From: Deltaproteobacteria bacterium
GTDB lineage: Bacteria; Desulfobacterota; Syntrophobacteria; Syntrophobacterales; Syntrophobacteraceae
DNA: 64,000 nucleotides
Assembly: GCA_012517315.1 (NCBI GenBank)
Contig: JAAYVE010000022.1
Location: 24,689 to 88,688 of the forward strand
Direction of reading: 5' to 3'
The notes below the pieces were generated by a model. That model was given only the letters and a program-made list of their open reading frames with translations, did no database searches and had not been told where the DNA came from. Shown here piece after piece: positions 22,191 through 44,322 of this stretch. A program made the translations under genes and the position numbers. Position 1 is the stretch's first letter. Each line of letters opens with the position of its first letter.

Positions 22191-23012
22191 AGAGGAGGCT
22201 CCCACACCAAAAAGACTCTGGCGAAGGCGGGGGTTCTGGAGTAGATCGCTTCCCCGGCCTGAGAGAGCAATACGTCCTTCTTCGATGAGACAGGCCGTGT
22301 CCGCCATCTGCAGGATTCTGCGTACGTGCTGTCCCGCAATGAGGAGGGTGATGCCCGCTTCCTTCAAGGACTGAAACAGATCGGAAAAACGTCGGAACAC
22401 CTTGGGGCTGAGTTCCTGAAAGGGGTCATCCAACAGGATGAGGCGGGCTCCGCTCATCAAACCCCGGGCCAGGGTCACCATCCGCTGCTGCCCACCGCTG
22501 AGGATTCCCGCCCGCACGTCCCGTTTGGCTCGCAACTCGGGAAGAATGTGGAAGATCATTTCCAGCAGGGTGGGAATGGCCTTCCGATTCAAGTATGCGC
22601 CGATTTCCAGATTTTCCAGGACGCTCATCTCCGGAAAGACACGCATTCCCTCGGGGACATAAACCACCCCCCGTTCGACGATTTCCCACACGGGAAGGGA
22701 TTCAATCGGTGCCCCGTCGAACAGAATGCGGCCCGCCGAAGGCCGGAGCAAGCCTGCTACCGCCTTCAGGATGGTGGTTTTGCCGGCACCGTTGGGACCC
22801 ACCAGGGCGCCGATCTGCCGGGATACCACTTGCAGGGAGACGCCGTCCACCGCTTTCCGGGTGCCGAAGAAGACGGAAATATCCTCCAGCACAAGGAGAG
22901 GTACCGGGGGGCTCGCTTCTGCCACCTGTTCAACCTTCTTCGGTAGTCTCGGAATAGTCCGGCAGGGTTCCGTCGTGATGGCTGTGGAATGCCGGCTGGA
23001 AGGGACCCTCAT
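22155..23012 (-). CDS. ABC transporter ATP-binding protein (LivF-like), orphan
   Basis: Walker [10 protein letters not shown], signature LSGGQQRM, Walker B LILLDDP. The start overlaps the U32 stop (ATGA), but the first ~45 aa are atypical, so the true start may be internal. Confidence 0.85.
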
Positions 23013-24040
23013 GCATAAAGGCCCTTGATATTGCGGTGGAGTTCCCGAGTCTTTTCCATGCGGGCCCGGTCCCGGTCCGCTGCAATTTCATCCAGTTCCT
23101 CCTGTAAGGGCACTAGTTTGGGATCGTCCCAGCAAAGACCTCGCCGATGGGCATCGATGAGGGAGCGATAGATGGCGATCATCCGTGAAATGAGACGGAC
23201 AGCATATTCCCTCCCCTGGACCTTCAGGGTGTGCAGACCCAGGTCCATGTAATCCCAGAGTTCACCCCGTGTGATGACGAAAGCCACGTTGGGGTGGCGG
23301 CGGATGCGGTCGTTGATGGTTTCGATTTCCGAATCCCCATGGCCCCGCTGCTTGAGGACCTTGCGTCTCTGTTCATCGGTGAGGAGGCAGAATCGGAGGC
23401 AACTGCCGCTTCGGTCGGGCCAGCCTTCATACTCCACGATCTCGTTTCCGTCCTCGTCGGCATAAATGCGCTTGATGTACGAGTCGCTAATGAGTTCGTG
23501 GAAGAGGCAATTCCCCACTCCTACCACGCATCGGTTCCCGTGAACGAGCACCTCCGTCGCCAGACCTAAGGCGTCGCACTCGGACTTGAATCTCCTCAGC
23601 TTTTCAACCGTGTTGATTTCCGTGCTCGCCACGATCTGCCGTGCCCCGCAACCCTTGTATTCCGCCATTTGGCGCGGAGTCTGGATGTTGCAGCCGACGC
23701 TTGCATGGATGACCAGATCGGGAAAGTTGTCCCTCACCATTTGCATGATGGCAGCGGTCTTGACGATGACCCCTTCGGCCCCCCATGAGGCATACTTGGC
23801 GATCTTTCCCATGGCCACCATGGACTTCTCAGGCGGGATCTCGGCGTTGAGAGCAATCCGCACTTTGCCCCCGAAGGGTTTGGCGATTTCAATGGCTTCC
23901 CGGACCTGCGAGTCCTCCAGTTCCCAGGCACATTTCCTCCTGCTGAATCCCTTGGAGCCCACGTAGACGGCGTCGGCACCGCTCGAAAAGACGGCTTCCA
24001 CCATGGCCAGGCTGCCACCCGGAGCCAAGAGTTCGTTCAT
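23009..24040 (-). CDS. Peptidase U32 family protein
   Basis: [28 protein letters not shown]...FSRR is a typical U32 N-terminus. 343 aa. Confidence 0.8.
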
Positions 24041-24315: not shown

Positions 24316-25167
24316 TCAAGGGGACAGAGCGGGCGACAGGACGAACCCCGTGCTTCCGAAAGCGAAGCGATCACCATATTCGGCGGCAAGCCTCGCGATG
24401 GGCTTCTGCCCTGTGCAGTGACTCGTTGCCAGAATCTTTAGCTGGTACTTGTTGAGTTGCCGGATCGTCTCCTCCAGTTGAACCTCGGGGGAGAACCCCA
24501 GGTGCGTTCCTCCCAGGATTGCAAAGATGCGATCCTCCCCCGTCTTCTGGATGACATGGTTCAAGATGTTGATGAGTCCTGCGTGGGCGCATCCCAGGAC
24601 GACGACCAGGCCCTGAGGGGTTTTGAGCACGAGGGAATAGTCGTCCAGGAAGGGGTCTGGTTCCCACCCACCATTGTTGCGCACCACGAACTTGGGATCT
24701 CCCGTCTCGAAGGGGGTCACCCGGGGGACCTCCCCAGTGACATAGATGCCCGGGGCCACCTCTGCAAAAGATTTCTCCCATTGGAAACGTGCTCCACGCG
24801 TGGTGAGATAGGCCTCGTGCCAGGGAATGCCGATGGAAACCAGCTTCTCCTCCTTCCCCATCATCATCCAGCGGAAACGCTCCCGCAGGACATCGGGGTG
24901 GGCAATGATTTCACAGGGGCCATGGAGACCGAGAAAGGCGAGCAAACCGCCTGTGTGATCAAAATGGCCGTGGCTGAGAAGCAGCCTGGAAACTTGGCGC
25001 AAATCCTTCTGGAGGCGCAATGAATTCTGCACGAGACTGAACCCCTGGCCTGTGTCAAAAAGAATTTTCGCCTCAGGGGTCTCCACGTAAGCGGAAAAAC
25101 CGTGTTCCCCCAGCAGACCGGGAGTCGTCACGGTATTCTCACACAGCACGGTAATTTTCCAGTCCAT
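24316..25167 (-). CDS. MBL-fold metallo-hydrolase
   Basis: LLLSHGHFDHTGGL and GCAHAG motifs. 283 aa. Confidence 0.8.
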   Translation of the reverse strand: MDWKITVLCENTVTTPGLLGEHGFSAYVETPEAKILFDTGQGFSLVQNSLRLQKDLRQVSRLLLSHGHFDHTGGLLAFLGLHGPCEIIAHPDVLRERFRWMMMGKEEKLVSIGIPWHEAYLTTRGARFQWEKSFAEVAPGIYVTGEVPRVTPFETGDPKFVVRNNGGWEPDPFLDDYSLVLKTPQGLVVVLGCAHAGLINILNHVIQKTGEDRIFAILGGTHLGFSPEVQLEETIRQLNKYQLKILATSHCTGQKPIARLAAEYGDRFAFGSTGFVLSPALSP

Positions 25168-25251: not shown

Positions 25252-26889
25252 TCAGCGCAGTTTGCGGCGGAGCAGTTTGCCCGTGGGGGTGCGGGGCAGT
25301 TCGGCCACGTATTCGAAGACCCGCGGGAGCTTGTAGATGGCGATGTGTCCCTTGAGGAATTCGAGCATCTGCTCGGTGAACTTGTCGTCTCCGGTCTGAC
25401 CGGGTTTGAGGACGACGACGGCCTTGACGATCTGTCCCTTGTCCGGGTCGGGAATGCCCACAACACCTACGTCGGCCACCGCCGGGTGTTTGGCGATGGC
25501 TTCCTCCACCTCCGAGGGGCCGATGCGATAGCCGGAACTCTTGATCATGTCATCTTCCCTGGCCACGAAGAAGATGTTTCCGTCCTCGTTCATGAACACG
25601 GCGTCGCCCATCTGGTTCCAGCCGTTGACGACCCCCTTCTTCTGGGATTTGAGAAGTCGTTCGTCGTCCACGTAGGGTTTCCAGTAAAGGGTGCCAGACG
25701 GTCCCTTGAGAATCATGCTGCCCACGTCGCCGGATTTGCAGTCGTTGCCTGTGGGATCAACAACGCGAATGTTCACCCCTGGGAGTGCCTTCCCGATGGA
25801 GTTAGGAACGGGTTCCGGGTTCATGGTGTTTGATGTCACCAAGTGCAGCATTTCGGTCCCCCCAAGCCCTTCCCAGATGGGTTGCCCGGTGAGTTCCTGC
25901 CACCCTTGCAGTGTTTCGGCCCCAAGGGCGTCCCCGCCGGACGTGCAGAGGCGGATGGAGCTGAAATCGTACTTCTTGAAATCGGGGAACTTCATGAGGG
26001 CCCTGTAAGCCGTGGGCAGGCCCGTGAGAACCGTGATCTTGTGCTTTTGCACGAGGTCCATCATGTCGGGAGGGCTGAACTTGGGCAGGAGGGACATGGC
26101 GGCGCCCCCCTCGAAAGGAAGGAGTGTGAACGTCCCGAAGCCGGCGGCGAAGGAGACCGGTGCAGCGCCTCCCAAGATATCTCCAGGCTTCATTTTGTAA
26201 ACATATTTATTGACTACCCTGGCCTCGATGATGGCCGGTCGTACGAAGTGCACGCAGCCCTTGGGCATCCCGGTGGTGCCGGACGTGTACAGGATGATCC
26301 CGATGTCGTCTGCCTTGAGCATGGTGGCGTCCAGTTGGGGAGCCCCCTTCTCCATCATCTCCTCGTACGAAAGGTGCCCGGAACTCTTCACCTCGTCGGG
26401 GTTGCCACCGATGACGATCACCTTGGTGCCGTATTCGAAATGGGCCTTGGCGGTCTCCACGGGTCCCATGAGAGGAGCGTTGACGATGAAATACTTCATT
26501 TCGGCGTTGTTGACGACAAAGGCGACTTCCTCACTGGACCAGAGGGGAGAAGTGGGAATGGGAATGGCACCGATCTTCTCGATGGCAAAAATGACGACCA
26601 CTGCCTGGGGGGTGTTCACCAGACGAATGCCCACGCGATCCTGAGCTTCCACTCCGGCAGCCTTCAATGCGTTTCCAAACTTGTTCACCATCGTTTGGAC
26701 CTGGGCATAGGTGAAGGTCTTGTCGGCGAACTTGATGGCGATGTTGTCTCCCCGACCCTCCCGAACATGGCGGTCAATGAGATAATCGGCAATGTTCAAC
26801 TCCATGGGGGTGTCCGCGAATTCCTCCGGCACCAGATATTCAGGCCATGTGTCCTTGGGAGGTAAGTAATTCTCAGGTATCTTTGCCAT
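25252..26889 (-). CDS. AMP-dependent acyl-CoA synthetase/ligase (aromatic-acid-CoA-ligase-like)
   Basis: ILYTSGTTGMPKG, GYRIGPSEVE, PRTPTGKLLRR. Start at ATG 26889 (MAKIPEN) with AAGGAGGG RBS; ORF track start is 26925. Confidence 0.88.
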   Translation of the reverse strand: MAKIPENYLPPKDTWPEYLVPEEFADTPMELNIADYLIDRHVREGRGDNIAIKFADKTFTYAQVQTMVNKFGNALKAAGVEAQDRVGIRLVNTPQAVVVIFAIEKIGAIPIPTSPLWSSEEVAFVVNNAEMKYFIVNAPLMGPVETAKAHFEYGTKVIVIGGNPDEVKSSGHLSYEEMMEKGAPQLDATMLKADDIGIILYTSGTTGMPKGCVHFVRPAIIEARVVNKYVYKMKPGDILGGAAPVSFAAGFGTFTLLPFEGGAAMSLLPKFSPPDMMDLVQKHKITVLTGLPTAYRALMKFPDFKKYDFSSIRLCTSGGDALGAETLQGWQELTGQPIWEGLGGTEMLHLVTSNTMNPEPVPNSIGKALPGVNIRVVDPTGNDCKSGDVGSMILKGPSGTLYWKPYVDDERLLKSQKKGVVNGWNQMGDAVFMNEDGNIFFVAREDDMIKSSGYRIGPSEVEEAIAKHPAVADVGVVGIPDPDKGQIVKAVVVLKPGQTGDDKFTEQMLEFLKGHIAIYKLPRVFEYVAELPRTPTGKLLRRKLR

Positions 26890-27495
26890 CCTCGTACCCT
26901 CCTTGAGTTTGGGTGAACCAAACAAGTTGATCTGGAATCATTGCGTCCAATAAATCCATTGGCGACCGAAACCGGATGAAAAAGAAAACGTCGCACCGTG
27001 CTCGCTATCACCTCCTTTCCAGGACAAACCGGCATACGCTGCCAACCATTCGACCGTTTGCGCCGTGTGACCGGACCCGCCCCAGGACGCTACGGGGATG
27101 AAAGGCGACTGACATGGTCGCGGGAATTCACAGCCGACCGGGGGTCCAAGGGATGGGGAAACAGGATTTCAAGCGAACCGATCCGGCCACCGGGAATGCT
27201 CTTGGAGAATGCTACACTCCCCAGTCCGGCGATTCCTTGCCGGCAACCCGGATTTGGCCTCGCTCGGCTGGGGAAAAGCGCTCAACTGACTGATCACAGG
27301 TTGTTCACGGGTCTTACCCGGCGAATGTCATTCACAGACTTCGAAAACCACAGAAACGCGAACCGCTGGGAAGGTGAGGACAGGCCGATTGAGAAGCTCT
27401 CAATTCAACGGGAAAAACAGGATAAAACGTGTTCAAACGGAACGTTGGGATCTCTTCTTCTCGATCTAAAGCGCATGGATAACGATTGGATGCCC

Positions 27496-30755: not shown

Positions 30756-30808
30756 GGCGAGAGCAGTTTCGTCTGGCCTGCCTTTGAATGTCGATGGAGC
30801 GGAAAGGG

Positions 30809-31549
30809 ATGTGCGACCTGTTGGCCCTCTCTGCCAGCAACGACTATACCCCCCATGAATACCTGCCCATTTTCGCGGAAAAGGGCAAAGGGAATATGAA
30901 CGGGTGGGGGATTGGTTTTTTCCGTGACAATCGGGCATACGTGGAGAAATCCGCCGAACGGGTTTTCGCGGGGGAACAGGTTCACGAGAGCTTCCAGAGG
31001 CTCGCCAGGGTCATCGACAGCAGGATCATTGTGTCCCACATCAGTTGCTCCCTCAGCGGAGGCCGCCACAGCACCGACAACCATCCCTTTGTGCTGCCTT
31101 TTTTGGGGCACAGCTGGCTTTTCGTGCATGTGGGCGTCGTCGACGGGATTGCCGGATACGAAACCTCCGTTGAGCCCCGCGTCGAATCCGAGGCCTTTCC
31201 GGCAAGGATTTTTGAATATCTCAGGGACCGGATGGTTTCGGCCTTATCCCGCAACCCCTACCTGGGTCTCTACGATGCCCTGAGGAATGCGATCCAGGAA
31301 ATCAGCCGGGACTATCCGGGGAGGTATACTTTCTTCCTGGCCAACGAGTCGGTGCTGTTCGTCTTTTGCAATTATCATCCCATCATGTTGCTCAGGGAAT
31401 CGGAAACCAGCGGGGAAGTGCTGCTCGTCACCTCCGTCAAGGAGGGACTCAGTGCCAAGCAGTGGTTGTCCGTGGTGCCCGAGGAGCCCCACGTGGGCAA
31501 GCTGCTGGTCATTGCGGGGCCGGACGTGCTCTACAGGGGGGACGTGTGA
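30809..31549 (+). CDS. Class-II (Ntn) glutamine amidotransferase-like protein, YafJ-type, paralogue 1 (divergent active-site motifs)
   Basis: Starts MCDLLALS (Cys1 nucleophile), then NGWGIGFF and DNHPF, but has FVHVGVV in place of HNG. ORF track start is 30788. Confidence 0.8.
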   Translation: MCDLLALSASNDYTPHEYLPIFAEKGKGNMNGWGIGFFRDNRAYVEKSAERVFAGEQVHESFQRLARVIDSRIIVSHISCSLSGGRHSTDNHPFVLPFLGHSWLFVHVGVVDGIAGYETSVEPRVESEAFPARIFEYLRDRMVSALSRNPYLGLYDALRNAIQEISRDYPGRYTFFLANESVLFVFCNYHPIMLLRESETSGEVLLVTSVKEGLSAKQWLSVVPEEPHVGKLLVIAGPDVLYRGDV

Positions 31550-31735
31550 GAGACCGGCAACAACGAACGTCCCCAGGCCGAACGCGTCTTGTGCGTGAGA
31601 GCCGGGCGACGCGCCTGGGTTTCGCGCGCCATGACCCTTGCCCGCACGACTCCGTAGGGCGGTTTTCCCGAGCGATCCAAGAGGAGGCGGCCGGTTGCAG
31701 GGAAGCCACCCTGGCCGTCACCTGCCTGAGACGAC

Positions 31736-32482
31736 ATGTGTGATCTATTCGCCCTCTCTGCGGGGAGGCAGTATTCCGCCCCCGAGGCGCTCACGGTGTT
31801 TGCCGAGAGAGCCAAGAAGAACATGGATGGATGGGGGATCGGCTACTTCAGGAAAGACCGGGCCTGCGTGGAGAAGTCCTTTGAGCAAGCCTATGCGGAT
31901 GGCCGGATTCACGACAGTTTTGCGCGCCTGTCGCGGGTGGTCAACAGCCGGCTGATCATCGCCCATGTTCGATTTCGTACCAGCGGTTTCATCGACGAGT
32001 GCCATGCCCATCCTTTCATCCTTCACTTCGCGGGGAGAGACTGGCTCTTCGCTCACAACGGCAAGGCGCCCGGCATCGAAACTTATCTGGCACGGGGGGA
32101 TGGGATCCAATGCGCCTTCAGCGACTCGGCGAGAACGTTCGAATTCCTTCGGGACCAACTCATGACCGACTACGTGCCCTTAGGGACGAAAGCCAGCCTG
32201 TTGGACGCACTCCTTTCCGCCACTTCCCGCCTCGTGGAGGAGTATCCGGGGAGCTACAATTATCTCCTTTCCAACGGGACAGTTCTTTTTGCGTTCAGCA
32301 ACCACAGACAGTTCATGATACTCAGGGGGGATGAACGAAACGGCGGGGCACTCCTGCTCACGACGGTGGAAAAAGGTCTGAGCAATGGAAATTGGGTCAG
32401 AATAGCCCGGAGCACTTCGTCCCGGGGTGTGCTCCTGGCTGTTGCGGGGGGGGACCTCGTGATGCAGCGGAGCCTTCTGTGA
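31736..32482 (+). CDS. Class-II (Ntn) glutamine amidotransferase-like protein, YafJ-type, paralogue 2
   Basis: MCDLFALS, DGWGIGYF, AHVRFRTSG, HPF, FAHNGKA. Clear paralogue of the preceding gene. Confidence 0.85.
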   Translation: MCDLFALSAGRQYSAPEALTVFAERAKKNMDGWGIGYFRKDRACVEKSFEQAYADGRIHDSFARLSRVVNSRLIIAHVRFRTSGFIDECHAHPFILHFAGRDWLFAHNGKAPGIETYLARGDGIQCAFSDSARTFEFLRDQLMTDYVPLGTKASLLDALLSATSRLVEEYPGSYNYLLSNGTVLFAFSNHRQFMILRGDERNGGALLLTTVEKGLSNGNWVRIARSTSSRGVLLAVAGGDLVMQRSLL

Positions 32483-32597: not shown

Positions 32598-33017
32598 TTA
32601 CCGAGAACGTTTTCTTGGCTGCCTCCTTTTGATGGGGTGCTTGTCTGCCAGGATATGCCGCACCATTGTGAGCACTTCCCATTCCGGGTAGGGTTCCAGG
32701 ATGCCGCCGTAAGCTCCCTGCTCGATGGCCTGTTTGATCAGGTCCCGGTTTGCCTGGTCGCAGAGCAGGATGATGCGGCATGCAGGGCATGCGGCTTTCA
32801 TTTTTGTGTAAAGGGAGGCTCCGTGAATGCGAAGCGTCTCCACATCCACGAAAACGATCGCATCGCTTCGCCCTTTGAGAAATTGGTACATCTCTTCCGG
32901 AACTGCCATGATGATGGGCGGGATATCGTTTCTGCGCAGAAGGTTTCCAAGATGATTGCGAATTCCCTCCTCGGAGACCAGCACAAGCAGGGCCGTTTGT
33001 TCGCCTGGTGCGTTCAT
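32598..33017 (-). CDS. Stand-alone receiver (CheY-like) domain protein with atypical active-site residues
   Basis: 140 aa from ATG 33017. LLVLVSEEG, DAIVFVDVE (Asp present), RIILLCD, GGILEPY (Lys position is Glu). ORF track start is TTG 33194. Confidence 0.6.
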   Translation of the reverse strand: MNAPGEQTALLVLVSEEGIRNHLGNLLRRNDIPPIIMAVPEEMYQFLKGRSDAIVFVDVETLRIHGASLYTKMKAACPACRIILLCDQANRDLIKQAIEQGAYGGILEPYPEWEVLTMVRHILADKHPIKRRQPRKRSR

Positions 33018-33190: not shown

Positions 33191-34396
33191 TCAAAGTTTG
33201 GCGTGTTGCTCCAGCTGGCTCTTGAACCGGTCCATGAATTCCATACGGAATGGTTCAATTTCCAGCGCCTCTTCGGGTTTTCCGGAGAGATAGAGGGTCA
33301 TGCCCTTGTAAACCAGGGCCTCCGGCATGCCGGGTTTGATCGCCAAAGCCTCTTCGAGGAATCGCAGGCTTTCCAGGTAGTTGCCGAGTCCCATGAGTGC
33401 GTAACCCTTGCCGACTTTGAGATAGGCATCCCTGTCGGGATGGGAGATGCGTTGTTCGAGTTGCTCAAATGTATCCAAGGCCTCATGGAAACGCCCGAGG
33501 TCATTGAGGCAGAGGCCCTTAAGCTTCAGTGCCTCCAAGTCCGGTGAAGGCAGGGCCATCTCCTTGTCACAGCAGTAGACCGCTTCCTCCAGGAGCCCTC
33601 TCTGTACGAGGCCCCTTGCCCCATCCATCCATCGAATCTGTTTTTCCACCCCGAGGAGTTTCAACATGACCCCTTCATAGGTTTCCTCGATGACCCGCCG
33701 CCCAAAATTGAAGACCGGAGCACCATGTCCCGGCCAGACGTTTTCGACGTCCTTTTTCAGAAGCGCCTTGAGGCTATACAGATAATGCTGGATTTCTCCC
33801 CCGGCACTCTTGTCCGCTTCGGCCATGGAATGGGGCAGCACGGTGTCACCGGTGATGACGGTCTTGGACGGAGCATGGTAGAAGCAGATGGAATCGATGG
33901 TGTGACCGGGGGTGTGGATGATCTCCCACTCAAAACCGCTCAATTCAATGACTTCTCCACCCGTTACCTCCCGCACCCGGCAACCCAGCTGGCGAACGAT
34001 GTCCTTCATTTCCTGAGGAGCGGCTTCGTGGGCGATCAATTCAAATCCACCGGCCTCCGCCACAGCCGGATATGCCCGCAGCAACTCGAAGGCTCCCATC
34101 ACATGATCCCGGTGGCCGTGCGTCACAGCGATCTTGCGGATCCTGGAGAGATCGATTCCCTGCCGATGCAGGTCTGTGAAGGCGGTGTAATCGTTGGCGG
34201 GATCCACGAGGGTCATGGACGGGCCATCCAGGAGGTAGATATTGGATGAAAAGTCGTAGCCTTGCAAAAAGCGGACACTACGGAACAGGGGGTCATGGCT
34301 GTTTAGAATTTCTCCGAGAACCTGCCAACCGGGGTGTTTGGTTTCCTCCTCCTGCTCAAGACCTGGTTCTTGCCCCAATTCTTCCATTCGGTGCAT
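33191..34396 (-). CDS. MBL-fold metallo-hydrolase fused to C-terminal TPR repeats
   Basis: VTHGHRDHVMG, HTPGHT, then TPR-like LGRFHEALDTFEQ / GNYLESLRFLEEALAIKP. Start at ATG 34396 with GGGAGA RBS; ORF track start is 34480. Confidence 0.8.
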   Translation of the reverse strand: MHRMEELGQEPGLEQEEETKHPGWQVLGEILNSHDPLFRSVRFLQGYDFSSNIYLLDGPSMTLVDPANDYTAFTDLHRQGIDLSRIRKIAVTHGHRDHVMGAFELLRAYPAVAEAGGFELIAHEAAPQEMKDIVRQLGCRVREVTGGEVIELSGFEWEIIHTPGHTIDSICFYHAPSKTVITGDTVLPHSMAEADKSAGGEIQHYLYSLKALLKKDVENVWPGHGAPVFNFGRRVIEETYEGVMLKLLGVEKQIRWMDGARGLVQRGLLEEAVYCCDKEMALPSPDLEALKLKGLCLNDLGRFHEALDTFEQLEQRISHPDRDAYLKVGKGYALMGLGNYLESLRFLEEALAIKPGMPEALVYKGMTLYLSGKPEEALEIEPFRMEFMDRFKSQLEQHAKL

Positions 34397-34775: not shown

Positions 34776-35198
34776 TCATGGGGCGATATAGGCCAGTTTG
34801 TAGCTGAGTTTCATTTTCTCCGCAGGCCAGAATTTGACGCTCATGCGCTCCTCGCCCGGCCAGACATCCTTGCCGCCCACTTTCTCGATGAGCAATTCGA
34901 TAAAGTGGAATTCCGTGAGTTCATACTTGGTGATGGCCTCCGGGGGAATGACCACGGCCAACCCGGACTCCTTGGACACGTTCCATTCGAAGTGCTCGTT
35001 GGGTTCGTGTGTCTTGACTCCATCACCGTTGTAGACCGCCAGCAGTTTTCCCGAAACGGTCTTGCCCCGAAGGGGTCTTTCTGCCTCCCAGATCTCGTCC
35101 GGCAGGTGCCACCAAAGGGCTCTGAACCCCGTCTTGACGTACCCCCGTACAAGCATGGGGTCGAATCCGCAAACACCTACACGACATTTTTCAGGCAT
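34776..35198 (-). CDS. Hypothetical protein (140 aa), last gene of CoA-transferase operon
   Basis: ATG 35198 with AGGAGG RBS 7 nt upstream (MPEKCRVGVCGF...). No family recognised. Confidence 0.6.
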   Translation of the reverse strand: MPEKCRVGVCGFDPMLVRGYVKTGFRALWWHLPDEIWEAERPLRGKTVSGKLLAVYNGDGVKTHEPNEHFEWNVSKESGLAVVIPPEAITKYELTEFHFIELLIEKVGGKDVWPGEERMSVKFWPAEKMKLSYKLAYIAP

Positions 35199-35268
35199 GC
35201 TCACCCTCCTGACTGACAGGATCACCGAGGACCGGGCAGAGAGCAGATCGGTCCACCAGGCCGATCGC

Positions 35269-35565
35269 CTATCCTTTGTCCACGATCCTGAGCCATGAAT
35301 GTTCCAATTCCTCAAGTGCGTTCTGGAGTTCTTCCACCTGAAGGTAGCATGAACCCAGAAAGTCGCTCACCTCCGCCTCATTGAGATATTTGTTCTCAAA
35401 AAGCCTTCTGACGTAGGGGACCACATAGCTGGTGACCTCTTCCCGGAACTCCTCCACCAGAAACTCGCCCCCCCCGTCGAGAGGCGCATCGCGCAGATAC
35501 GCCTCCTTCCAGCGGATCACCATTGTCTTGATTGCCGTCAGTTCATTGATGACCAGATCTTCCAT
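35269..35565 (-). CDS. Hypothetical acidic protein (98 aa)
   Basis: ORF packed 4 nt after the preceding gene. Helical, acidic composition and no motif recognised. Confidence 0.6.
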   Translation of the reverse strand: MEDLVINELTAIKTMVIRWKEAYLRDAPLDGGGEFLVEEFREEVTSYVVPYVRRLFENKYLNEAEVSDFLGSCYLQVEELQNALEELEHSWLRIVDKG

Positions 35566-35569
35566 GGCG

Positions 35570-35800
35570 CTATTTCTTCTTAGCCTCGAAGGCGAAGCAC
35601 TTCTTCACCACGTTGAAATCGGCCACGGACCAATAATGGGGCCAGTGGATCTTCTTGCACCAGCCGATAATGTCCGCGGGAGGGAATTGGGACCCCTTCA
35701 GCACCGGTTTGAGGTGCCTGCACTGCCAGCAGATATGATCGCTCTGCTTTTCCGGAATGAGTACGGTATCCAGGAATTCTTCAGGGGATAGCTGTGCCAT
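35570..35800 (-). CDS. Hypothetical small Cys/Trp-rich protein (76 aa)
   Basis: Contains HICWQC (CxxC), plus WC and KC. Lies 18 nt after the preceding gene. Confidence 0.6.
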   Translation of the reverse strand: MAQLSPEEFLDTVLIPEKQSDHICWQCRHLKPVLKGSQFPPADIIGWCKKIHWPHYWSVADFNVVKKCFAFEAKKK

Positions 35801-35818
35801 GCAACACTCCTTTCCTGC

Positions 35819-36304
35819 TCACCATTCCTTGACTTCGCCCTTTTTGATCTTCTCCTGATATTCGGCCCACACGTCGGGGGAGAGCTTCTGGACGTCCCAG
35901 TTGAAGCCGAAGCTCCCGGCGATGCCGGCTGACGGGGGCTGCGGACGCCAACCCCTGACAAGCTTTCCTCGGGCGCTGTATTTCACCATGTCGGCACGGC
36001 CCAGGTAGATGTGCCTGGGGAGGCAATGATAAGGCCTGGTCCTGCCCTCGATGCCCGGGATGTAGCAGTCGTAACCGTCGAGGGGCTTGTCCGCGACCAG
36101 GGGGCTGGTGTCGGGCTTCTCCCCAGGTCTCTCCTCCGGGCCTATGTACATGTGGCCCTGGATCATGTGGATGTAGTAAACCGTTCCACATTCGGCGCAG
36201 TTCACCTTCCCTTCCCAGTTCCAAAAGCAGTAAGGGTCAAGGTAGTTCACCGTGTTGCAGGGTTTACCGTCCTTCTCTTTCTTGCACCAAATGATATCGC
36301 ACAC
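35819..36304 (-). CDS. Hypothetical Cys-rich protein (about 162 aa)
   Basis: GTG 36304 preceded by GAAGGAGGA, which avoids overlap with the upstream stop at 36322; the longest ORF start is 36346. Cys pattern CDIIWC...PC...YC...NCAEC...DC...HC. Confidence 0.6.
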   Translation of the reverse strand: MCDIIWCKKEKDGKPCNTVNYLDPYCFWNWEGKVNCAECGTVYYIHMIQGHMYIGPEERPGEKPDTSPLVADKPLDGYDCYIPGIEGRTRPYHCLPRHIYLGRADMVKYSARGKLVRGWRPQPPSAGIAGSFGFNWDVQKLSPDVWAEYQEKIKKGEVKEW

Positions 36305-36321
36305 AGTGCATCCTCCTTCTC

Positions 36322-37737
36322 TTAGATCATGCTCTTGGCATACCATTCTTCGATTTTGGCCGTGGGATAGCCGAGCAGTTCATGGTAGATCTTCACGTTG
36401 TCGGCGCCCACCGGTCTCCAGATCCAGTAGAGCCTGCGTGGGGTCTTGGACATGAGGCCCGCTGAATACGTGCCGTGCTGGAGAATGTCGCCGAAGAGAG
36501 GATCCTCGGTCCACCGGACGGTTCCGCGCTGGCGGTAATGCTCACATTCGTAGACTTCCCTGTCGTTCATGACCGGCTCGGCCAAGAGGCCGGCATCCTG
36601 GAGGATCTTGACGACTTCCGAACGGCTCTTGTCGGCGGCCCAGCGCTCGAGCGCCGCGTAGATCTCCACCTGGGCTTCCCCTTCCACCCGGTCCTTGTGT
36701 GCTTTGTATTTTTCGTAGAGCTCCTTCATCCCCGTGATGGCGCAGAGTTCTTGGAAGTCCCTGTCCTGGAAGGCGCTCACCATGGCATACCTGGCTTCGA
36801 ACTTGTCCTGAGGATTCACCGCGTCGGGAAAATCGGACTTTCCGCACAGGATGATCCCGTGGACGCACAGCTGGGTGTCCCAGTTGCCCCAACGCTGGCG
36901 CACGATTCCAAAACGGCCGTAGAGGGGTGCTGCATACCCTAGGCATCGTGTAGCCGCCTGCACCTGGGAGAACTCGATCATGGTCCCGAGCCCGGTCTTC
37001 CGTCTCCAGTGAATGGCCGCCAGGATCCCGAAGGTGATCTGGGTCCCTGAATACCAGTCGATGCACCAGTTGGAATGCTTGGTGGCGTGGCCCCCCATGA
37101 ACTCATGCATGCCGGTGACCGATGCGAGTCCGGCATGAGCTTGGCCGAGAATGTCGTAGGAACCGCCGAACACCTTGGGCCCATACCCGAAACCGCCGCC
37201 CCAGACGTAGATGAACCGGGGGTTCATTTCCTGCAGGAACCGATAGCTTTGCTTCCACCGATCGAAAGTCCCGGGGCGGTAACACTCCGTCAACCCGTCG
37301 GACATTTTCACCAGGCGGTAGAAGGCTTCCTTCATCTCGTCCAGGTGATAGTCCATGGTGATGTGGTACTCGTTGGGGTTGGCGTTGAGGTAACCGTAGC
37401 CGGTGCCGGTCATGGGCCGGGTGTCGTGGAGGGGATAAAGGTAACACTCATTGAACGGGGAAGTGTGCCGCATGGGGTCCCCCATCCTAGGCATCTCCAC
37501 CTTGATGACTTCCGCTCCCAGTTCCGCCAGGTTGGAAACCGAGTGCGGGGTGAAAATATACATGGTGGTGCTCAACCAGCGGATGCCCTTCAGAGCCATG
37601 GGCTTGCAGAACTCATTGCCCGGGTCGAATGCCTTGCGGCAATACTCCTCATAGGGCATCTTCATTTCCTCGAGCTCTTCCTTGCTCTGCGGGCCGGGCA
37701 AATCCTCCAGCCTGGTGACTCTCAAATCCTTTGCCAT
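36322..37737 (-). CDS. Family III CoA-transferase (CaiB/BaiF/Frc-like), subunit 2
   Basis: MAKDLRV... with [45 protein letters not shown] 37737 overlaps the upstream TAA by 1 nt (TAATG). The track ORF to 38247 is an out-of-context extension. Confidence 0.85.
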
Positions 37738-39224
37738 TAGATTACCCCCTTTTCCTTGAGTGCATTGACATCGGTTTGACCCATCCCAAGATACTTCAGG
37801 TACATCTCGTAGTTGTCTTTGCCGAGAGGCCTGCCCAGCCATTTGACGCGGTGGGGCGTCCGATACTGGAAGGAATTGGGCGACGCCGAGTAGAGGATGG
37901 TCCCATACTGGTCGCTGTCGATGGTGTACACCCAAGGTCGATATTTGAAGTGCGGGAATTCCGCCACTTCGTCGATGAACAGAATGGGCCCGGCGGCGAT
38001 TTCGTACTCCAGGAGCTTTTGCTCCGCCTCCACCCGGTTGATGTCCCTGAGCCAGCGGGTCGTGAGGGTATAGGTCTTGATGAGGGCCTGGAGGGCGTTT
38101 CTCGCAGCCATTTCCTTGAGGAGGGGATCCTCGTGGATGAGTCGGCCGAACTGTGGGAAATCCCTCTCGATGCACATGCCGATACGGTACCACAGGCGGT
38201 CTGTCTGGCCGCCGATCATCATGTAGCCGTCTTTGCAGGGGTTCCATTCATACTGGTTCAGGTTGGGGTCCCAGGCCCCCGTCCTTGCCTTGATGCTCTT
38301 GTTGAACCCGTACCAGCCGATGTCGAAGTCCAGGATGTCCATCTGGGTTTCGGCACCGGTCACCTCGATGAGCTGTCCCTCACCGCTGAACTGGTCCCTC
38401 CAGTAGAGGGCGGCCAGAATGCTGCAGGCACCCTGTTCACCGGCGACATAGTCGGCGAACCAGACGCCGGAACGGGTGGGGTCCCCGCCCTTTCCGCGGG
38501 GGAGCTGATCCTGAGGAAAGCCCGTGTTGTGGACGAAGGAATTGGCGCAGCCCCCGAATGGTTCCAGGGTCCACTGGCCGAATTTGGAGAGTTTGTCCTT
38601 GTAAGGACCCCAAGTGCCCCGCACCGCGATTTGGCAGTATACGAGACCTGGATTGAGCTTGGAGAGCTGCCGGTAGCCGACTCCCAGGCTGTCCATGTAG
38701 CCCGGGGGATACTCTTCGATAATGGCGTCGGCGTGGGTGGCCAGCTTCTTGTACAATTCCCTGCCCTCTTCCGTCTCGATATTGAGGGTGATGGAGTAGG
38801 CGTTGCGCAACTCATGAATGAAGTCCAAACCGGTCTTGGTCCCCGTGTCCCGGTCGGCCAGCATGTATTCTTCCCGTCCGAAAGGGGTGAGTTTTCGCAA
38901 GGGGTCCCCTTCGGGGGGTTCGATGTTGATGACCTCGGCCCCGGCCTCCCCCAGAAGGCCCGCGCAGAACTTGTTGCCCATCCTCCAGAGTCCCATGCAC
39001 AGGACTCTGAACCCCTGGAGGGCTTCCGGCTTCCCGAAGCCGTATTCGAACCTGAGGTTGTCCTCACACCATTTTCCGAAGTCCGTGGCCTTGCGCCGTG
39101 CATAGACAGCCGCCACCTCCTCCGGTGAGGGAGGCGGTGTCACAGGCCATGGGCGTACCTCCGGACCCATCAAGGGCAGCGTGTCCGCAAGGCTGTTGAT
39201 TTCGATATCTCTCTTTTCTGCCAT
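37737..39224 (-). CDS. Family III CoA-transferase (CaiB/BaiF/Frc-like), subunit 1
   Basis: [10 protein letters not shown]...[57 protein letters not shown]. Start at ATG 39224 (MAEKRD) with GGGAGG RBS; ORF track start is 39278. Confidence 0.85.
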
Positions 39225-39952
39225 TCTTGAACCTCCCGTGCTCAGAGTGTTCTCTTGGACTGACTTTGCATCCTGCATCCCGGTGCCTCCTCAGGCCCGC
39301 GGCGATGCATTACGCCTCAGCACTTCGTGAAACAGGCACGGACCCGGCGTGCTGGACTCGGAATGTGGATTGCGGGAATCCGTGCGGGTTGCCTTTCTCC
39401 AAGGAAGAGAAAGAAACCCCTGAGCGCCTCTATCACCCCCTTTCCTGTCCCTCCGGGGGGCTCGGGGTCAACGTGCAATCACCCGTGCCCTCTAGGAGCC
39501 TTTGCATATGATGAAACACTCAACGTCTGCACTCGTCGAGATGTGGTGACCGGAAGCGAGGAGAAACGCCTTTTTGGTGACCGTCTGAAAGAAAGCAACG
39601 GAATCGACTAGGTGCTGGAAAAGGAGCCTGTTGTCGCTTGAGAGAAGCGCGATGTGAAGAGGGAGAAGGCTGCGCCGATTGTTCGGAGATGCAGCAGCAA
39701 CCTATGTGCTGTTACAAGAAGCTTGCCAAGGGCAAGAGCAGCAGGGTGCAATCATCCCTTCAATTGATATTCCACAATATGTCAATAAGTTAAATGAGAT
39801 CGAAGTGGAGATGCCCAACACCTGACAATGGTTCCAAAGGGGAGAATGGAGTGAAAACTGTCCAATTTCCGACTGCCTGTTGAGAGGCAAAATCATAGAA
39901 GCTAAATAGAGCAAAGGGTTAAGGGGATAGTCTCGAATGCGACCCAACTGGG

Positions 39953-42328
39953 TCAATTGATAGCTTGGGACTCGGGCCCGAGCCCATATCTGCGGATCAT
40001 GCTGTAAAGGGTACTGCGGCTGATTCTCAATCGCCGTGCGGCCTCGTGCTTGTTCCAGTTGGCGTCGTTGAGGACCCGGAGGATCAGTTGCCGTTCGTTT
40101 TCCTCCAGGGACATGGACCCCACCGGATGGGAGCCTTCCCGCAGAAAGCGGGGAAGGTGACTCATGCGGATGACGTCTTCCTGGGCCAAGACCACGGCGT
40201 GACTGATGGCGTTTTCCAGTTGGCGGACGTTGCCGGGCCATTCATGGTCCATGAGCACCTGCATGGCGTCAGGGGAAAACTTGAGGATCTTCTTTCCCTC
40301 TTTTAAATTGTACTTCTTGAGGAAATGCTGGGCAAGGAGAGGGATGTCCTCCTTGCGTTCGCGCAAAAGCGGCAGATGAATGGAAATCACGTTGAGGCGG
40401 TAATAGAGGTCGTCGCGAAATCGCCCAGCCCGGACCTCTGCTTGGAGATCGCGATTCGTCGCTGCCAGGATCCTCACATCCGCCGCAATGGTCGTCTCCC
40501 CACCGACCCGTTCGAAGCAGTGGTCCTGGAGAAAGCGGAGAAGGAGAATCTGTGTCGCCGGCGCCGTGTCGCCGATTTCATCCAGGAAAAGGGTTCCCCC
40601 GTTTGCCCGCTCGATGCGGCCCTTTTTCTGGCGGATGGCTCCGGTGAACGCTCCTTTCTCATGGCCGAAGATCTCGCTCTCCAACAGCGTCGGCGAATAG
40701 GCGGAACAGTTGGCCACCACGAAAGGCCCCTTGTAGCGGTGACTGCGGCTGTGAATGGCCTGGGCCACCAGTTCCTTGCCCGTCCCGTTTTCCCCCGTGA
40801 TGAGGACGGTGGCGTCGGAACCGGATACCAGCCCAATGAGTTCGTAAACTTCCTGCATCGCCTTGCTCTGGCCGATGATCTCCCCGTAGGCCGCCCGCTC
40901 CTGGACATGGCTGCGCAATTGATTGATCTCGGCCTCATGGATAACCAGCTTGTGAAGGTGGCCCGCCACCTGTTCGAACAGGGCATGAAGGAACCGAATG
41001 TCTTCCCGGCTGACGCTCTTGGAAGGACTCCCCCCCATGAAGCACAGCCCCGTACACCGGTTCTCGGTAGAAATGGGAAGACCAAACCATGAGTCGAACG
41101 TCTCGCCGAGGACGTTCAGGAATGCGGGCGTTTCGGGAGAGCTGCCGGAATGGAAAAGGTGTCCGCTTCCCGGTCGGTTCAAATAGGCGATGAAATCAGA
41201 GACAACGCCTGCCTCCTCCATTCTGCGCAGCATCTGCACAACCGGCTGTGAGACGGAAGCGTCGCAGGTTTCGAGGCGTAGAAAGTGATTTCCGGCAGGG
41301 CTCAAGAGGAACAGCAAGGGGGTGCATTCAGGGCAGATGCGCCGCATGATCTCGTAAAGGGAATGGACAAGCTCCCGGATGGAACTCTTCGCACTCATCT
41401 GACGGGAGATCTCAAAGAGGGTTTCCAGTTGCTGCTGGGTCTTCTGCAGTTCCCTGGACCTTGAGGCGAGGGTTTCCTCCATTCTTCTCTTTTCAGTGAT
41501 GTCTCTCTCGATGCGGATGATGAGGTGAGGAGCTCCGCTGCTGCTGGGGACGGGGTGCGCGATGACCTGGAAGAGGCGCGCCTGGCCCCGTGCGTCCGGG
41601 AATCCTTTCTCCATGCCGACGGGGCGGTTGGTTTGGTAGGCCTGCTGTACAATGCAGGCGAGCCCGTCGGCTTGGCAGGGACGCCCCCGCCCAAGGATCA
41701 CCTCGTAACAGGGCTTACCCAGCACCGAAGAGATGTTCTCCAGACCGAGGCGGTGGACAAGCGGCTGGTTCGCCTGGATGATGCGATAGTCCCTGGGGTC
41801 AATGACCAAGAGGTTGTCGGACATGATGTTGATGATTTCTCCACAGAAGTTCCTTGCCTCGAGAAGATCCTCCTCGCGTTTTCTCAAAGGGGTGGCGTCC
41901 CTCATGAGCACGATGCAATCGGAAGGATCCCCCGAGTTTTGAAGGGAGGCGACGGTGACAAACGTGGAAACGTGCCCCCCGTCCTTTCTCGCCAGGATGA
42001 GTTCGGAGCGGTATGGCTTTTCCCCACTCATTCCATGCAACACATCTTCCCAGGATGCGGAGCAATCCTGCGCCAGGAGGGAGAGGAGGGGGCGTCCCTG
42101 GAGTTCCAGGGGGGCGTAGCCCAGGAGTGCCCCCATGGAATCATTGGCGAGAATCACGCAGCCCTGACGATCCACGATGCAGATGCTGTCTCCAGCCAGG
42201 CGGAACAACGTCTTTGCCGTTTCTTCCCATTGAGGCGGCAGCCTTTTCATAAGGGAGTCTCCGGAATTCATGAAATCGTGCCGGATCATCTGACCCACGG
42301 CCTCGAACGATTTCCCTGCCGCCCTCAA
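39953..42328 (-). CDS. Sigma54-dependent transcriptional activator (PAS-PAS-GAF-AAA+-HTH)
   Basis: ITGENGTGKELVA (Walker A), ESEIFGHEKGAFTGA (GAFTGA), FLDEIGD, C-terminal Fis-type HTH AARRLRISRSTLYSMIRRYGL. The N-terminal ~430 aa hold PAS-like repeats and a GAF-like module. Confidence 0.9.
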   Translation of the reverse strand: MRAAGKSFEAVGQMIRHDFMNSGDSLMKRLPPQWEETAKTLFRLAGDSICIVDRQGCVILANDSMGALLGYAPLELQGRPLLSLLAQDCSASWEDVLHGMSGEKPYRSELILARKDGGHVSTFVTVASLQNSGDPSDCIVLMRDATPLRKREEDLLEARNFCGEIINIMSDNLLVIDPRDYRIIQANQPLVHRLGLENISSVLGKPCYEVILGRGRPCQADGLACIVQQAYQTNRPVGMEKGFPDARGQARLFQVIAHPVPSSSGAPHLIIRIERDITEKRRMEETLASRSRELQKTQQQLETLFEISRQMSAKSSIRELVHSLYEIMRRICPECTPLLFLLSPAGNHFLRLETCDASVSQPVVQMLRRMEEAGVVSDFIAYLNRPGSGHLFHSGSSPETPAFLNVLGETFDSWFGLPISTENRCTGLCFMGGSPSKSVSREDIRFLHALFEQVAGHLHKLVIHEAEINQLRSHVQERAAYGEIIGQSKAMQEVYELIGLVSGSDATVLITGENGTGKELVAQAIHSRSHRYKGPFVVANCSAYSPTLLESEIFGHEKGAFTGAIRQKKGRIERANGGTLFLDEIGDTAPATQILLLRFLQDHCFERVGGETTIAADVRILAATNRDLQAEVRAGRFRDDLYYRLNVISIHLPLLRERKEDIPLLAQHFLKKYNLKEGKKILKFSPDAMQVLMDHEWPGNVRQLENAISHAVVLAQEDVIRMSHLPRFLREGSHPVGSMSLEENERQLILRVLNDANWNKHEAARRLRISRSTLYSMIRRYGLGPESQAIN

Positions 42329-43095: not shown

Positions 43096-44322
43096 CTATG
43101 CTATTTCCTCCTCATGGATATAGAGCCTGTCTCCCCTGCGGCTTCGGTCGAAACAGTAGACCTCCAGTCCGGGAACAATCACTCTGACCGCGGGGATGGC
43201 GACATCCGGCCGGGTGAGATCCACGGCAATGATCCTCCGGATGCCTTTCTCTTGAAGTCTCCCGGCCATGACCTCAATGTCGGAGAGAATATCCGGCGTG
43301 CTCGACGACTCGATGGTACCGAGCGGCTTGCAGACCCTGCCGGAGAAGCGTCCGTCCTCGAGCTCCGCTTCAAGATCGATATAGGAAGTGCTTTGGCGCA
43401 GACCCTGGATTCCGTGCCTTTCCAGGAGGAAAGCCCGTGTGGATGCGATTTCCATAAGGGCGCGGGCCATGGCGACACAGGGATCTAGGTGAGCGCCGAA
43501 CCCGTCCACTGGAATGGCGGATGCGTATTGCAGGTCTCGGGAAAAGGCGGCGATCACAGGTATTCCAAGGTTGGTGGTGATGTCTTTGGCGGTGATCTCG
43601 ATGCTCGCGGCCTGGAATCGCGCCACAAGATCCAGGAGGAACCCATGGTCCGGGATGTCCTCCACGCAGAGGGCTGTGTCCATGGAGTCACGGAACTCGG
43701 CGATGCTCCAGGCGTCTCGTTCCACCACTTCCGCCAGGCCATGGAAGATCGCTTCCTCCATGGTGTTTCCCGAAGCCAGTCCGTTGGTGCTCGTGGAAAT
43801 GGGGCTCAGGGGGTCCAAGGGGAAGGGGTGATAGACGGCGCACGCAGGGACAAGGACACCCTCCTTTGCGAGGAGGTCGTATCCCCAAACCCAGTGAAGT
43901 GGAATCCGCCGCGGGTTCTTGGCGAACCGGGGCAGGATGAGTTCCTGGGGGTCAAGAACGGGGTGATCCCGGACCAGCTCCTGAAAGGAGCCCCGGATGA
44001 GCCGGGAAAGGTATTCATCCCGAAACTCCGATGCGTGGCGTTCGATGGCCTCCATGAGAAGGGAGACTTGGGCCTGGAGCGCTGAAAGTCCCTTGCCCAC
44101 GTGAGTGACAACTGCCTTATCGGGTCTGGTTCTCCGGCAGGTGAATACGGGAATCCCGATCCGGTCCGCACCTGTGGCTTCCCCCATGGAGCGGATGCCA
44201 ATCAGTTCCTTCATCTTCTCGATGAAATCGAGAGTCGCTTGAGGTGTCCTGGATCGGTGGGTCTCGTGAACGTAAACCTTGGGGCACTCTTTGAGGATCA
44301 TCGTGTGCTGTGGAGGTGACAT
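43096..44322 (-). CDS. YcaO-like family protein
   Basis: 408 aa. VTHVGKGLSALQAQVSLLMEAIERHA, GLASGNTMEEAIFHGLAEVVERDAWSI (YcaO ATP/Mg site style). Confidence 0.8.
   Translation of the reverse strand: MSPPQHTMILKECPKVYVHETHRSRTPQATLDFIEKMKELIGIRSMGEATGADRIGIPVFTCRRTRPDKAVVTHVGKGLSALQAQVSLLMEAIERHASEFRDEYLSRLIRGSFQELVRDHPVLDPQELILPRFAKNPRRIPLHWVWGYDLLAKEGVLVPACAVYHPFPLDPLSPISTSTNGLASGNTMEEAIFHGLAEVVERDAWSIAEFRDSMDTALCVEDIPDHGFLLDLVARFQAASIEITAKDITTNLGIPVIAAFSRDLQYASAIPVDGFGAHLDPCVAMARALMEIASTRAFLLERHGIQGLRQSTSYIDLEAELEDGRFSGRVCKPLGTIESSSTPDILSDIEVMAGRLQEKGIRRIIAVDLTRPDVAIPAVRVIVPGLEVYCFDRSRRGDRLYIHEEEIA

Follow-up and report, generated by a model that had tools for sequence, protein, structure and literature searches.

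A conserved six-gene module of paired family-III CoA-transferases and four small proteins of no recognized family

What do two paralogous coenzyme A (CoA) transferases do in the company of four small proteins that resemble nothing in the databases? The question is raised by six minus-strand genes at 39224..34776 of a 64,000-nucleotide stretch of contig JAAYVE010000022.1, from an assembly labeled Deltaproteobacteria bacterium (the whole stretch is hereafter the window). An original prediction, made from the DNA alone, had read these genes as an operon for two family-III CoA-transferases and four unrecognizable small proteins. Here, we find that the six genes are a real, strongly conserved, and previously uncharacterized module, which is probably the sign of an as yet undescribed route for processing a CoA-linked acid. 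As to its function, we give an even chance to the reading that the locus encodes a dedicated multi-subunit family-III CoA-transferase holoenzyme within a self-contained, horizontally mobile CoA-ester module.

Composition, conservation, and distribution of the module

All six open reading frames (ORFs) were confirmed, and their positions and tight spacing match those predicted. In order of transcription, they encode alpha (CoATA, 39224..37737, 495 amino acids, with the ribosome-binding site GGGAGG), beta (CoATB, 37740..36322, 471 amino acids), gamma (Cys162, 36304..35819, 161 amino acids, with a GTG start 7 nucleotides after AAGGAGGA), delta (p76, 35800..35570, 76 amino acids, Trp-rich), epsilon (p98, 35565..35269, 98 amino acids, acidic), and zeta (p140, 35198..34776, 140 amino acids, beta-rich). 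The beta start overlaps the alpha stop within TAATG, and the intergenic spaces 3' of beta measure 17, 18, 4, and 70 nucleotides in order. One detail of the prediction was in error: gamma, taken as a protein of about 162 residues with at least nine cysteines, has eight in its 161-residue form, six of them conserved.

Using beta, we scanned one genome per GTDB species (~185,000 species genomes) and found relatives in 268 genomes; the locus counts below refer to the best 80 of these, in which beta is 77–98% identical, across phyla. By tblastn with all window proteins, the same order, alpha-beta-gamma-delta-epsilon-zeta, is kept in the 80 loci as far as the contigs reach. The exception is one clade in which epsilon is truly absent (L008, L010, L012, and L021; related loci are given by such numbers). 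Under strict extraction criteria, the complete set of six came out of 47 loci; contig ends interrupt most of the others. Overlap of the alpha stop codon with the beta start codon, as seen in the window, recurs in 43 of 67 loci, and the median gaps before the following genes are 1–19 nucleotides. Identity to the window proteins in related loci is 66–90% for alpha, 70–97% for gamma, 64–93% for delta, and 50–99% for zeta, with epsilon the least conserved of the four small proteins (36–77%).

The small genes are under strong purifying selection. Against L004, the Nei-Gojobori proportions of nonsynonymous and synonymous differences (pN/pS) are 0.02/0.51 for gamma, 0.03/0.47 for delta, 0.12/0.62 for epsilon, and 0.01/0.63 for zeta; in more distant pairs, synonymous sites are saturated and pN is still 0.08–0.4. 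Non-conservation of the small ORFs, which the original prediction had named as grounds for abandoning it, is thus contradicted by both their recurrence and a pN far below pS.

Hosts of the module include Desulfobacterales, Syntrophobacterales, Desulfacinum, Desulfosoma, Desulfobacca, Desulforhabdus, Thermodesulfatator, and the ethane-consortium partner Eth-SRB2, together with Chloroflexota/Anaerolineales, Terriglobia (Acidobacteriota), Margulisiibacteriota, Methylomirabilis, Deferrimicrobium, and CSP1-8. In total, the bacterial hosts span six or more phyla, and two contigs are archaeal. The full set lies on L085 with the archaeal markers thermosome, CGI-121, and PUA, and on L099 (GCA_054014375.1) with Alba, archaeal TRM10, and RFC. 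On L099, the order on one strand is zeta, a metallo-β-lactamase (MBL) fold hydrolase with tetratricopeptide repeats (MBL/TPR, discussed below), alpha, beta, gamma, delta, and epsilon. In six metagenome-assembled genomes (MAGs), the entire module is present twice, as paralogous copies (L008/L083, L028/L075, L029/L069, L030/L059, L031/L063, and L041/L066), as expected for substrate-specific catabolic enzymes. Given that beta remains ~80% identical between phyla despite synonymous saturation, the comparison points to horizontal spread under unusually strong constraint.

In one syntenic locus, on the 815-kb contig of L001 (8027–11435), alpha, beta, and gamma are frameshifted, and one shift yields the called beta-gamma fusion P0003. 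The shifts probably arose in long-read assembly and not through gene decay, since amino-acid conservation runs across them.

Both transferases proved to be full-length members of PF02515, in line with the two CaiB/Frc-like paralogues of about 495 and 471 residues originally described. Alpha residues 69–470 span positions 1–365 of the 366-position Pfam model (E = 4.6e-65), beta residues 50–441 span positions 1–359 (E = 1.8e-65), and the two are 28% identical to each other. In beta, the segment SYD196ILGQAHAG aligns with YDFVVQAESG of the formyl-CoA transferase 10uh, Asp on Asp. We take the Asp of this YDFVVQA motif to be the catalytic Asp169 (O. formigenes numbering), as established for the family. 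Beta Asp196 is invariant in 81 of 81 sequences. The corresponding column of alpha (LEPFGG, Glu221) holds Glu in 51 of 68 sequences and Asp in 16; it was placed by realignment through archaeal alphas and those of the remote type 2 module described below, in which LDPAGQCA, LDPTAQAA, and LEPTGQAA served as anchors. An assignment of alpha as a dead subunit, made when pairwise HMMER alignment gave Asp to Gln, was withdrawn once the type 2 and archaeal alignment gave Glu or Asp. By alignment, then, both subunits appear to retain a carboxylate at the catalytic column along with the GAEVIxxE / GDPxR CoA-binding signature.

The transferases fall outside the characterized orthologous groups, which agrees with the original prediction. 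None of the NCBIfam equivalogs (Frc, YfdE, CaiB, mesaconate, glutarate, and Mct) was reached, with scores of 55–129 bits (best, 115–129) against cut-offs of 413–750. The best solved relatives are remote, at E values of ~1e-18 to 1e-26 (the closest at ~1e-23 to 1e-26), and comprise a Brucella CaiB/BaiF protein, formyl-CoA transferase, succinate-hydroxymethylglutarate CoA-transferase, and BbsEF. Alpha and beta thus look like new, deep-branching members of a known superfamily.

The four small proteins had been called unplaceable in any family, and broader searches leave them so. Pfam and NCBIfam (E ≤ 0.01) returned zero matches for all four, searches of the PDB with their profiles gave nothing significant, and PADLOC and PHROGs contained no match, for which reason a defense-system or phage identity was dropped. 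Curated Pfam, NCBIfam, and PDB (2025–2026) hold no model or structure for them, and a literature search found no description of the module. Exact look-ups did find the proteins in public collections, where every named entry listed is a "hypothetical protein." These entries include Desulfacinum infernum DSM 9756 (SAMN02745206_02014-02017), D. hydrothermale DSM 13146, and Desulfosoma caldarium, cultured hosts that make the module tractable. A search with zeta alone gathered 574 clusters at 90% identity, none with a Pfam domain and the named ones again "hypothetical protein." The three matches to a concatenated query had made the families seem rare; this was a limit of that search, as the exact look-ups and the 574 zeta clusters show them to be common. 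Because its transferases carry generic CaiB-like annotations and its named small proteins are entered as hypothetical, whatever the module does escapes metabolic reconstruction in sulfate reducers, syntrophs, and groundwater lineages.

Gamma is highly constrained, with a mean column identity of 83% and 54 invariant positions among 44 orthologues. Its N-terminus carries a zinc-ribbon-like pattern (C7, C16, C36, and C39), Cys94 is invariant as well, and the protein contains the motif NYLDPYxFWNWEGK and a basic middle segment (GRTRP...RGRPVRGWRPQPP). The AlphaFold2 model of gamma, from a shallow alignment, is poor, with a predicted local distance difference test score (pLDDT) of 48 that falls below 40 across most of residues 71–140; it was rejected as unusable for fold searches. 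A model of this kind is compatible with a subunit whose folding requires a partner, though it is no proof of one. Delta conserves H22, C24-x2-C27, C48, C68, and four Trp residues. The delta fold also occurs as the C-terminal 75 residues (~66–69% identical) of two otherwise unrelated proteins of 287–294 amino acids, P0001 (L002 2927–3790) and P0002 (L003 153–1016), which are encoded in a different context, adjoining a DUF5131 gene. Zeta has invariant C5 and C10 and a confident, beta-rich AlphaFold2 model (pLDDT 90.7, predicted template modeling score 0.86). Foldseek against the PDB returned nothing for zeta at E < 0.1. The best template modeling (TM) score was 0.46, and the beta-barrel look-alikes at or below this value (PHS018, riboflavin kinase, and FAD-binding domains) were not accepted as homology.

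The wider unit and its remote relative

Beyond the six genes, clustering of flanking ORFs in the 80 loci revealed three recurrent neighbors: the MBL/TPR protein (52 loci), a sigma-54 activator (37 loci), and a receiver protein of ~142 amino acids (22 loci). No other neighbor family occurred in more than 10 of the 80 loci, and no decarboxylase, dehydratase, or dehydrogenase was found among the scanned neighbors, consistent with the absence of such partners noted originally. By gene linkage, the unit is larger than six genes and includes MBL/TPR and, more loosely, the response regulator, an acyl-CoA ligase, a second MBL protein, and a U32-family protein.

The MBL/TPR gene lies 3' of zeta at 33191..34396 on the minus strand (ORF from 34480, likely start near 34396) and matches the Pfam families Lactamase_B and TPR, the repeats being C-terminal. 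A tblastn match occupies this position in ~58 of the 80 loci, against the 52 obtained by ORF clustering and extraction. Its closest relatives are GloB (glyoxalase II) and LACTB2. As in GloB and in MBL thioesterases such as PqsE, the ligand set of the binuclear metal site, HxHxDH...H...D...H, is complete: H121, H123, H126, H193, D212, and H252 are present in 53 of 53 sequences and D125 in 52 of 53. The protein differs from GloB in its C-terminal TPR and in its score against the GloB equivalog TIGR03413 (55.4 bits, below the cut-off of 200.8). Because the host organisms are not known glutathione producers, its substrate is more likely an acyl-CoA. Downstream follows the receiver protein, a single-domain CheY-like response regulator (32598..33017, minus strand; Pfam Response_reg).

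The AMP-forming acyl-CoA ligase (25252..26925, minus strand; Pfam AMP-binding) lies 8 kb from the module in the window and within 9 kb of it in nine loci of the same type (type 1); ligase fragments also occur upstream in L001. The window ligase is 76% identical to that of L022 (Eth-SRB2) and 64% to that of L048 (Thermodesulfatator). Directly downstream of it come the second MBL-fold protein (24316..25167, minus strand; Pfam Lactamase_B) and then a peptidase-U32-family protein (23009..24040, minus strand; Pfam PF01136). This ligase-MBL-U32 trio (23009–26925) matches one that stands directly after the module in Thermodesulfatator L048 (13043–16735). The U32 gene, loosely linked to the module overall, lies within 9 kb of it in L011, L018, L022, L027, L036, and L048. 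The window U32 protein matches NCBIfam TrhP (3e-27) and UbiU (4e-21), both below cut-off, and is a possible O2-independent hydroxylase.

A profile hidden Markov model of gamma, searched against 1.84 billion representative proteins, gave only 48 matches. The distant gamma homologues (132–140 amino acids) share the zinc-ribbon core CxxC-x3-NYLDPxxFWNFxGKxKCAGCD and belong to a remote type 2 module. Its gene order is a CoA-transferase of 471–476 amino acids, a CoA-transferase of 448–459 amino acids, a gamma-like protein, a delta-like protein of 46–68 amino acids (CxxC...GxCxKxEWP, recognizably delta-related), two small proteins, and an orthologous ligase. Comparison of the two small proteins with epsilon and zeta by hhalign detected no similarity. 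Every type 2 locus has an orthologue of the ligase beside the module, and the window ligase is 53% identical to the Nitrospinota orthologues and 45% to those of Thermoanaerobaculia. Further neighbors are MFS and ABC transporters in Thermoanaerobaculia; in Nitrospinota, an MBL/TPR protein lies nearby, as do an IclR regulator and an alpha/beta hydrolase. Just upstream of the IclR regulator in Nitrospinota (L093–L095, 3607–5576) are AIRC (LarB-like) and Ni_insertion (LarC-like) genes, domains that belong to nickel-pincer cofactor synthesis.

Given that the quartet is kept in type 2 while epsilon and zeta are replaced, alpha, beta, gamma, and delta make up the ancient invariant core. The ligase and MBL/TPR are recurring partners of that core, and epsilon and zeta appear to be lineage-specific. 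The original prediction had suggested a heteromeric enzyme from the lengths of the two transferases. The translational coupling conserved in 43 of 67 loci, together with the survival of the alpha/beta/Zn-ribbon/p76-like quartet in type 2, favors this suggestion, and these patterns are explained most simply by a heteromer that has Cys-rich partners of its own.

Proposed function and competing explanations

In the mechanism we propose, alpha and beta would be the catalytic heterodimer, presumably interlocked as is typical of the family, whose members transfer CoA in ping-pong fashion by way of an aspartyl anhydride. Gamma and delta, as predicted Zn-binding subunits, would clamp onto alpha and beta at their extended N-termini and insertions and would shape or gate the acyl-acceptor site; the middle segment of gamma, basic and seemingly non-globular, may extend into that site. 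Zeta and epsilon would be peripheral, lineage-specific subunits. The ligase would spend ATP on the first substrate-CoA and so prime the cycle, and the transferase would then move CoA from product to fresh substrate, as in CaiC/CaiB and BaiB/BaiF. MBL/TPR could dock through its TPR and hydrolyze the thioester, for product release or proofreading. Expression is probably inducible: the neighboring sigma-54 activator and the response regulator would switch it on, and a Shine-Dalgarno-like leader element would fine-tune it (see below). The substrate would be a carboxylic acid; our guess that it is aromatic or dicarboxylic comes from the kind of ligase encoded and from the IclR regulator and transporters that adjoin type 2 modules.

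Known systems offer partial parallels. Heteromeric family-III CoA-transferases include SmtAB and succinyl-CoA:phthalate CoA-transferase, as well as BbsEF (9fn0). As in the module, BbsEF consists of two adjacent, diverged family-III paralogues, presumably a heteromer; beta matches 9fn0_B at E = 5e-22 and alpha matches 9fn0_A at E = 6e-18. In both systems, the subunits differ from each other at the catalytic column, with Gly in 9fn0_B where beta has Asp. Identity is only ~25%, however, and the module subunits have 50–70 additional N-terminal residues and insertions, and both appear to keep the carboxylate. BbsEF sits in a beta-oxidation operon and is not known to have small subunits. The module departs from this two-subunit makeup in that four extra genes and MBL/TPR are inherited with the transferases, and its surroundings show no conserved beta-oxidation genes. 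The genomic link between a family-III transferase and an AMP-forming ligase recalls CaiB/CaiC and BaiF/BaiB and fits a priming and recycling cycle, but the module scores 56–74 bits against the CaiB cut-off of 413, lacks the dehydratase, reductase, and oxidoreductase genes of the Cai and Bai systems, and adjoins its ligase in a minority of type 1 loci. Paired class-III CoA-transferases also adjoin an acyl-CoA synthetase in two gene clusters for benzene degradation, "Magic" of ORM2a (bioRxiv 10.1101/2024.12.15.628547) and BzS1_26180-26210 (PMC13416013). Their partners are hot-dog proteins or dehydratase and flavoprotein subunits, and we rejected them as the same cluster.

The architecture of four private small subunits plus MBL/TPR is a new variant. 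If family-III transferases of this kind always travel with four small proteins of their own and a thioesterase-like hydrolase, the enzymology would be new and would expose a blind spot in anaerobic metabolism. With respect to the new CoA-ester module with a Cys-rich partner complex that was originally proposed, the conserved module and its co-inherited partners stand, through the observed family membership, catalytic residues, co-inheritance, selection, and linkage to hydrolase and ligase; the unit is larger than the six genes envisaged, and the complex and its metal binding are inferred.

Several points weigh against a dedicated transferase holoenzyme. The assembly of six proteins into one complex is itself a deduction from gene content, and the role given to gamma is guesswork in view of its model with a pLDDT of 48. 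No cofactor or metal family is assignable to the Cys patterns. The ligase, second MBL, and U32 genes are linked in a minority of type 1 loci only, and no consistent canonical −24/−12 promoter (GG-N10-GC, TGGCACG-N4-TTGCW) was found in 67 CoATA upstream regions. A transferase side by side with a thioesterase seems a wasteful arrangement, unless the hydrolase acts on a different substrate. Finally, characterized family-III enzymes are known only as homodimers or α2β2 assemblies, without extra subunits, so the presence of four obligate partners may point to chemistry in addition to CoA transfer.

An explanation built on this last point survives best among the alternatives, and we regard it as possible though doubtful. 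The small subunits, perhaps together with the alpha site, would form a second catalytic center that transforms the bound CoA-ester, making the whole a transferase-plus-modifying machine like FldABC. The chemistry could be dehydration, hydration, decarboxylation, ring chemistry, or O2-independent hydroxylation. Such a center would account for four obligate partners conserved as strongly as gamma (83% column identity, 54 invariant positions), for the conserved Cys/His sets of gamma, delta, and zeta, and for the apparently changed catalytic residue of alpha, Glu in most sequences; no other modifying enzyme is conserved nearby, and the loosely linked U32-family protein is a putative anaerobic hydroxylase. 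FldBC, the 2-hydroxyacyl-CoA dehydratase subunits of FldABC, carry Fe-S clusters and need an ATP-dependent activator, and nothing like FldBC or the activator is encoded at the module. FldA, the family-III transferase subunit of the FldABC dehydratase complex (cited in PMC13416013), nevertheless provides a precedent for a family-III transferase within a multi-subunit machine that transforms a CoA-ester on the complex. Against a second center, Pfam and NCBIfam recognize no flavin, Fe-S, radical-SAM, biotin, or TPP domain in any subunit, and the Cys patterns resemble structural zinc ribbons (CxxC...CxxC in the remote homologues). Epsilon and zeta are also unlikely to be catalytic, because both are replaced in type 2 and epsilon is missing in one clade.

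Taken to its fullest form, which we consider doubtful, this line of thought makes alpha, beta, gamma, and delta a new class of machine, in which the transferase scaffold would hold the acyl-CoA while metal-binding small subunits carry out a demanding O2-independent step. Its substrate would be, for example, an aromatic or otherwise inert acid, and MBL/TPR and the ligase would close the cycle. If true, the small proteins would stand for four new families, at least one of them apparently new in fold as well, and the module for a new anaerobic carbon route shared horizontally among anaerobes of sediment, groundwater, and hot springs and archaea.

It is unlikely, in our judgment, that alpha and beta instead act on a ligase-made CoA-ester as a racemase/epimerase (AMACR/MCR-like), an intramolecular CoA-transferase (Mct/ThnP-like), or a transferase/lyase (DddD-like), with MBL/TPR releasing the acid. 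Acyl-CoA-dependent chiral inversion does use this layout of a ligase, a family-III-fold enzyme, and a thioesterase, and the ligase is universal and directly adjacent in type 2 modules. AMACR and MCR are among the PDB relatives of alpha (E ~1e-10), and intramolecular family-III transferases exist, namely Mct (PMC9813914) and ThnP (PMC11659651). The closest matches, however, are true transferases (formyl-CoA, succinyl-CoA:mesaconate, and BbsEF) and no racemases, the ligase stands outside the type 1 core (within 9 kb in only ~9 of 80 loci), and the four small subunits go unexplained.

Still less probable is a stress or repair module, switched by the PAS/sigma-54 activator, for CoA-based detoxification of a reactive aldehyde or thioester, a glyoxalase analogue without glutathione. 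The kinship of the hydrolase to glyoxalase II (hydroxyacylglutathione hydrolase), the adjoining regulators, the scatter of the hosts among anaerobes and archaea, and a self-contained module without downstream pathway enzymes would all suit this role. No glyoxalase-I-like domain was detected, however, and the double modules in six MAGs, like the ligase, transporter, and IclR linkage of type 2, fit substrate-specific catabolism better. The notion that the small ORFs are spurious or unrelated downstream genes and not functional partners of the transferases, for which their lack of database annotation is the sole argument, deserves virtually no credence and is refuted by their collinearity, as far as the contigs reach, in 80 loci across phyla and archaea (epsilon missing in one clade only), by pN/pS of 0.01–0.12 over 0.47–0.63, by the confident fold of zeta, and by the retention of gamma and delta in type 2.

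Regulation, leader block, and other genes of the window

The inducible expression proposed for the transferase holoenzyme would depend on the gene directly upstream of the operon (39953..42328, minus strand), a sigma-54 enhancer-binding protein with PAS sensors, an AAA+ domain, and a Fis-type helix-turn-helix (PF00158, E = 2e-68; PF08448; PF02954). The activator and its PAS domains are as originally predicted, but Pfam finds no GAF domain. Substrate induction through this protein, also part of that prediction, is favored by the adjoining position and disfavored by the activator being a neighbor in only 37 of the 80 loci and by the missing canonical promoter. The best sigma-54 candidate in the window, GGGCACGGGTGATTGCA, has GG-N11-GC spacing. 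Simple scans for sigma-70 promoters and terminators gave nothing consistent, and an Rfam scan of the window found nothing but one tRNA.

The regions upstream of CoATA share a different feature. An exact RRGGRGGTGA block is present in 54 of 67 of them, 82–414 nucleotides before the start, with a chance expectation estimated at ~0.003 per region. The block, usually GAAAGGAGGTGA, is complementary to the 3' end of 16S rRNA, and no conserved ORF follows it across the leaders examined. The window has only five RRGGRGGTGA sites, including one in the operon leader (AAGGGGGTGA, 39442..39433, minus strand, 218 nucleotides 5' of the CoATA start) and one in the ligase leader (AAGGAGGTGA, 27017..27008, minus strand). 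The block also occurs in the leaders of separately transcribed ligases in four loci (L011, L015, L018, and L022). Its sharing by operon and ligase ties the ligase to the module.

This leader block looks like an mRNA stabilizer of the STAB-SD type, a class that shields transcripts from 5'-exonuclease through 30S subunit binding, or a shared leader signal. STAB-SD is the 5' mRNA stabilizer of Bacillus thuringiensis cry3A (PMC4113751), likewise a Shine-Dalgarno-like sequence (GAAAGGAGG...) that lies far 5' of the start and initiates no ORF. The candidate element differs from it in occurring in Desulfobacterota and other Gram-negative lineages. If functional, it would extend STAB-SD-type mRNA control beyond Firmicutes.

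Other genes of the window lie apart from the module. Those for a bacterial YcaO protein (43096–44322, minus strand; 294 bits against the McrA-glycine thioamidation model TIGR03266, cut-off 365) and an adjoining radical-SAM protein (44525–45682, minus strand; weakly similar to B12/radical-SAM methyltransferases) were considered as modifying enzymes and set aside, being absent from all related loci. On the plus strand at 29631–32482, an amidoligase gene (PF12224) is followed by two paralogues resembling class-II glutamine amidotransferases (GATase_4), and the same set occurs near the module in L004, L061, and L073. A RACo-type protein (reductive activator of corrinoid proteins; PF14574, PF17651, and PF17650) is encoded at 17491–19074 on the minus strand and a CobB/CobQ-like protein at 47420–48895, which together show that the contig comes from a corrinoid-using anaerobe.

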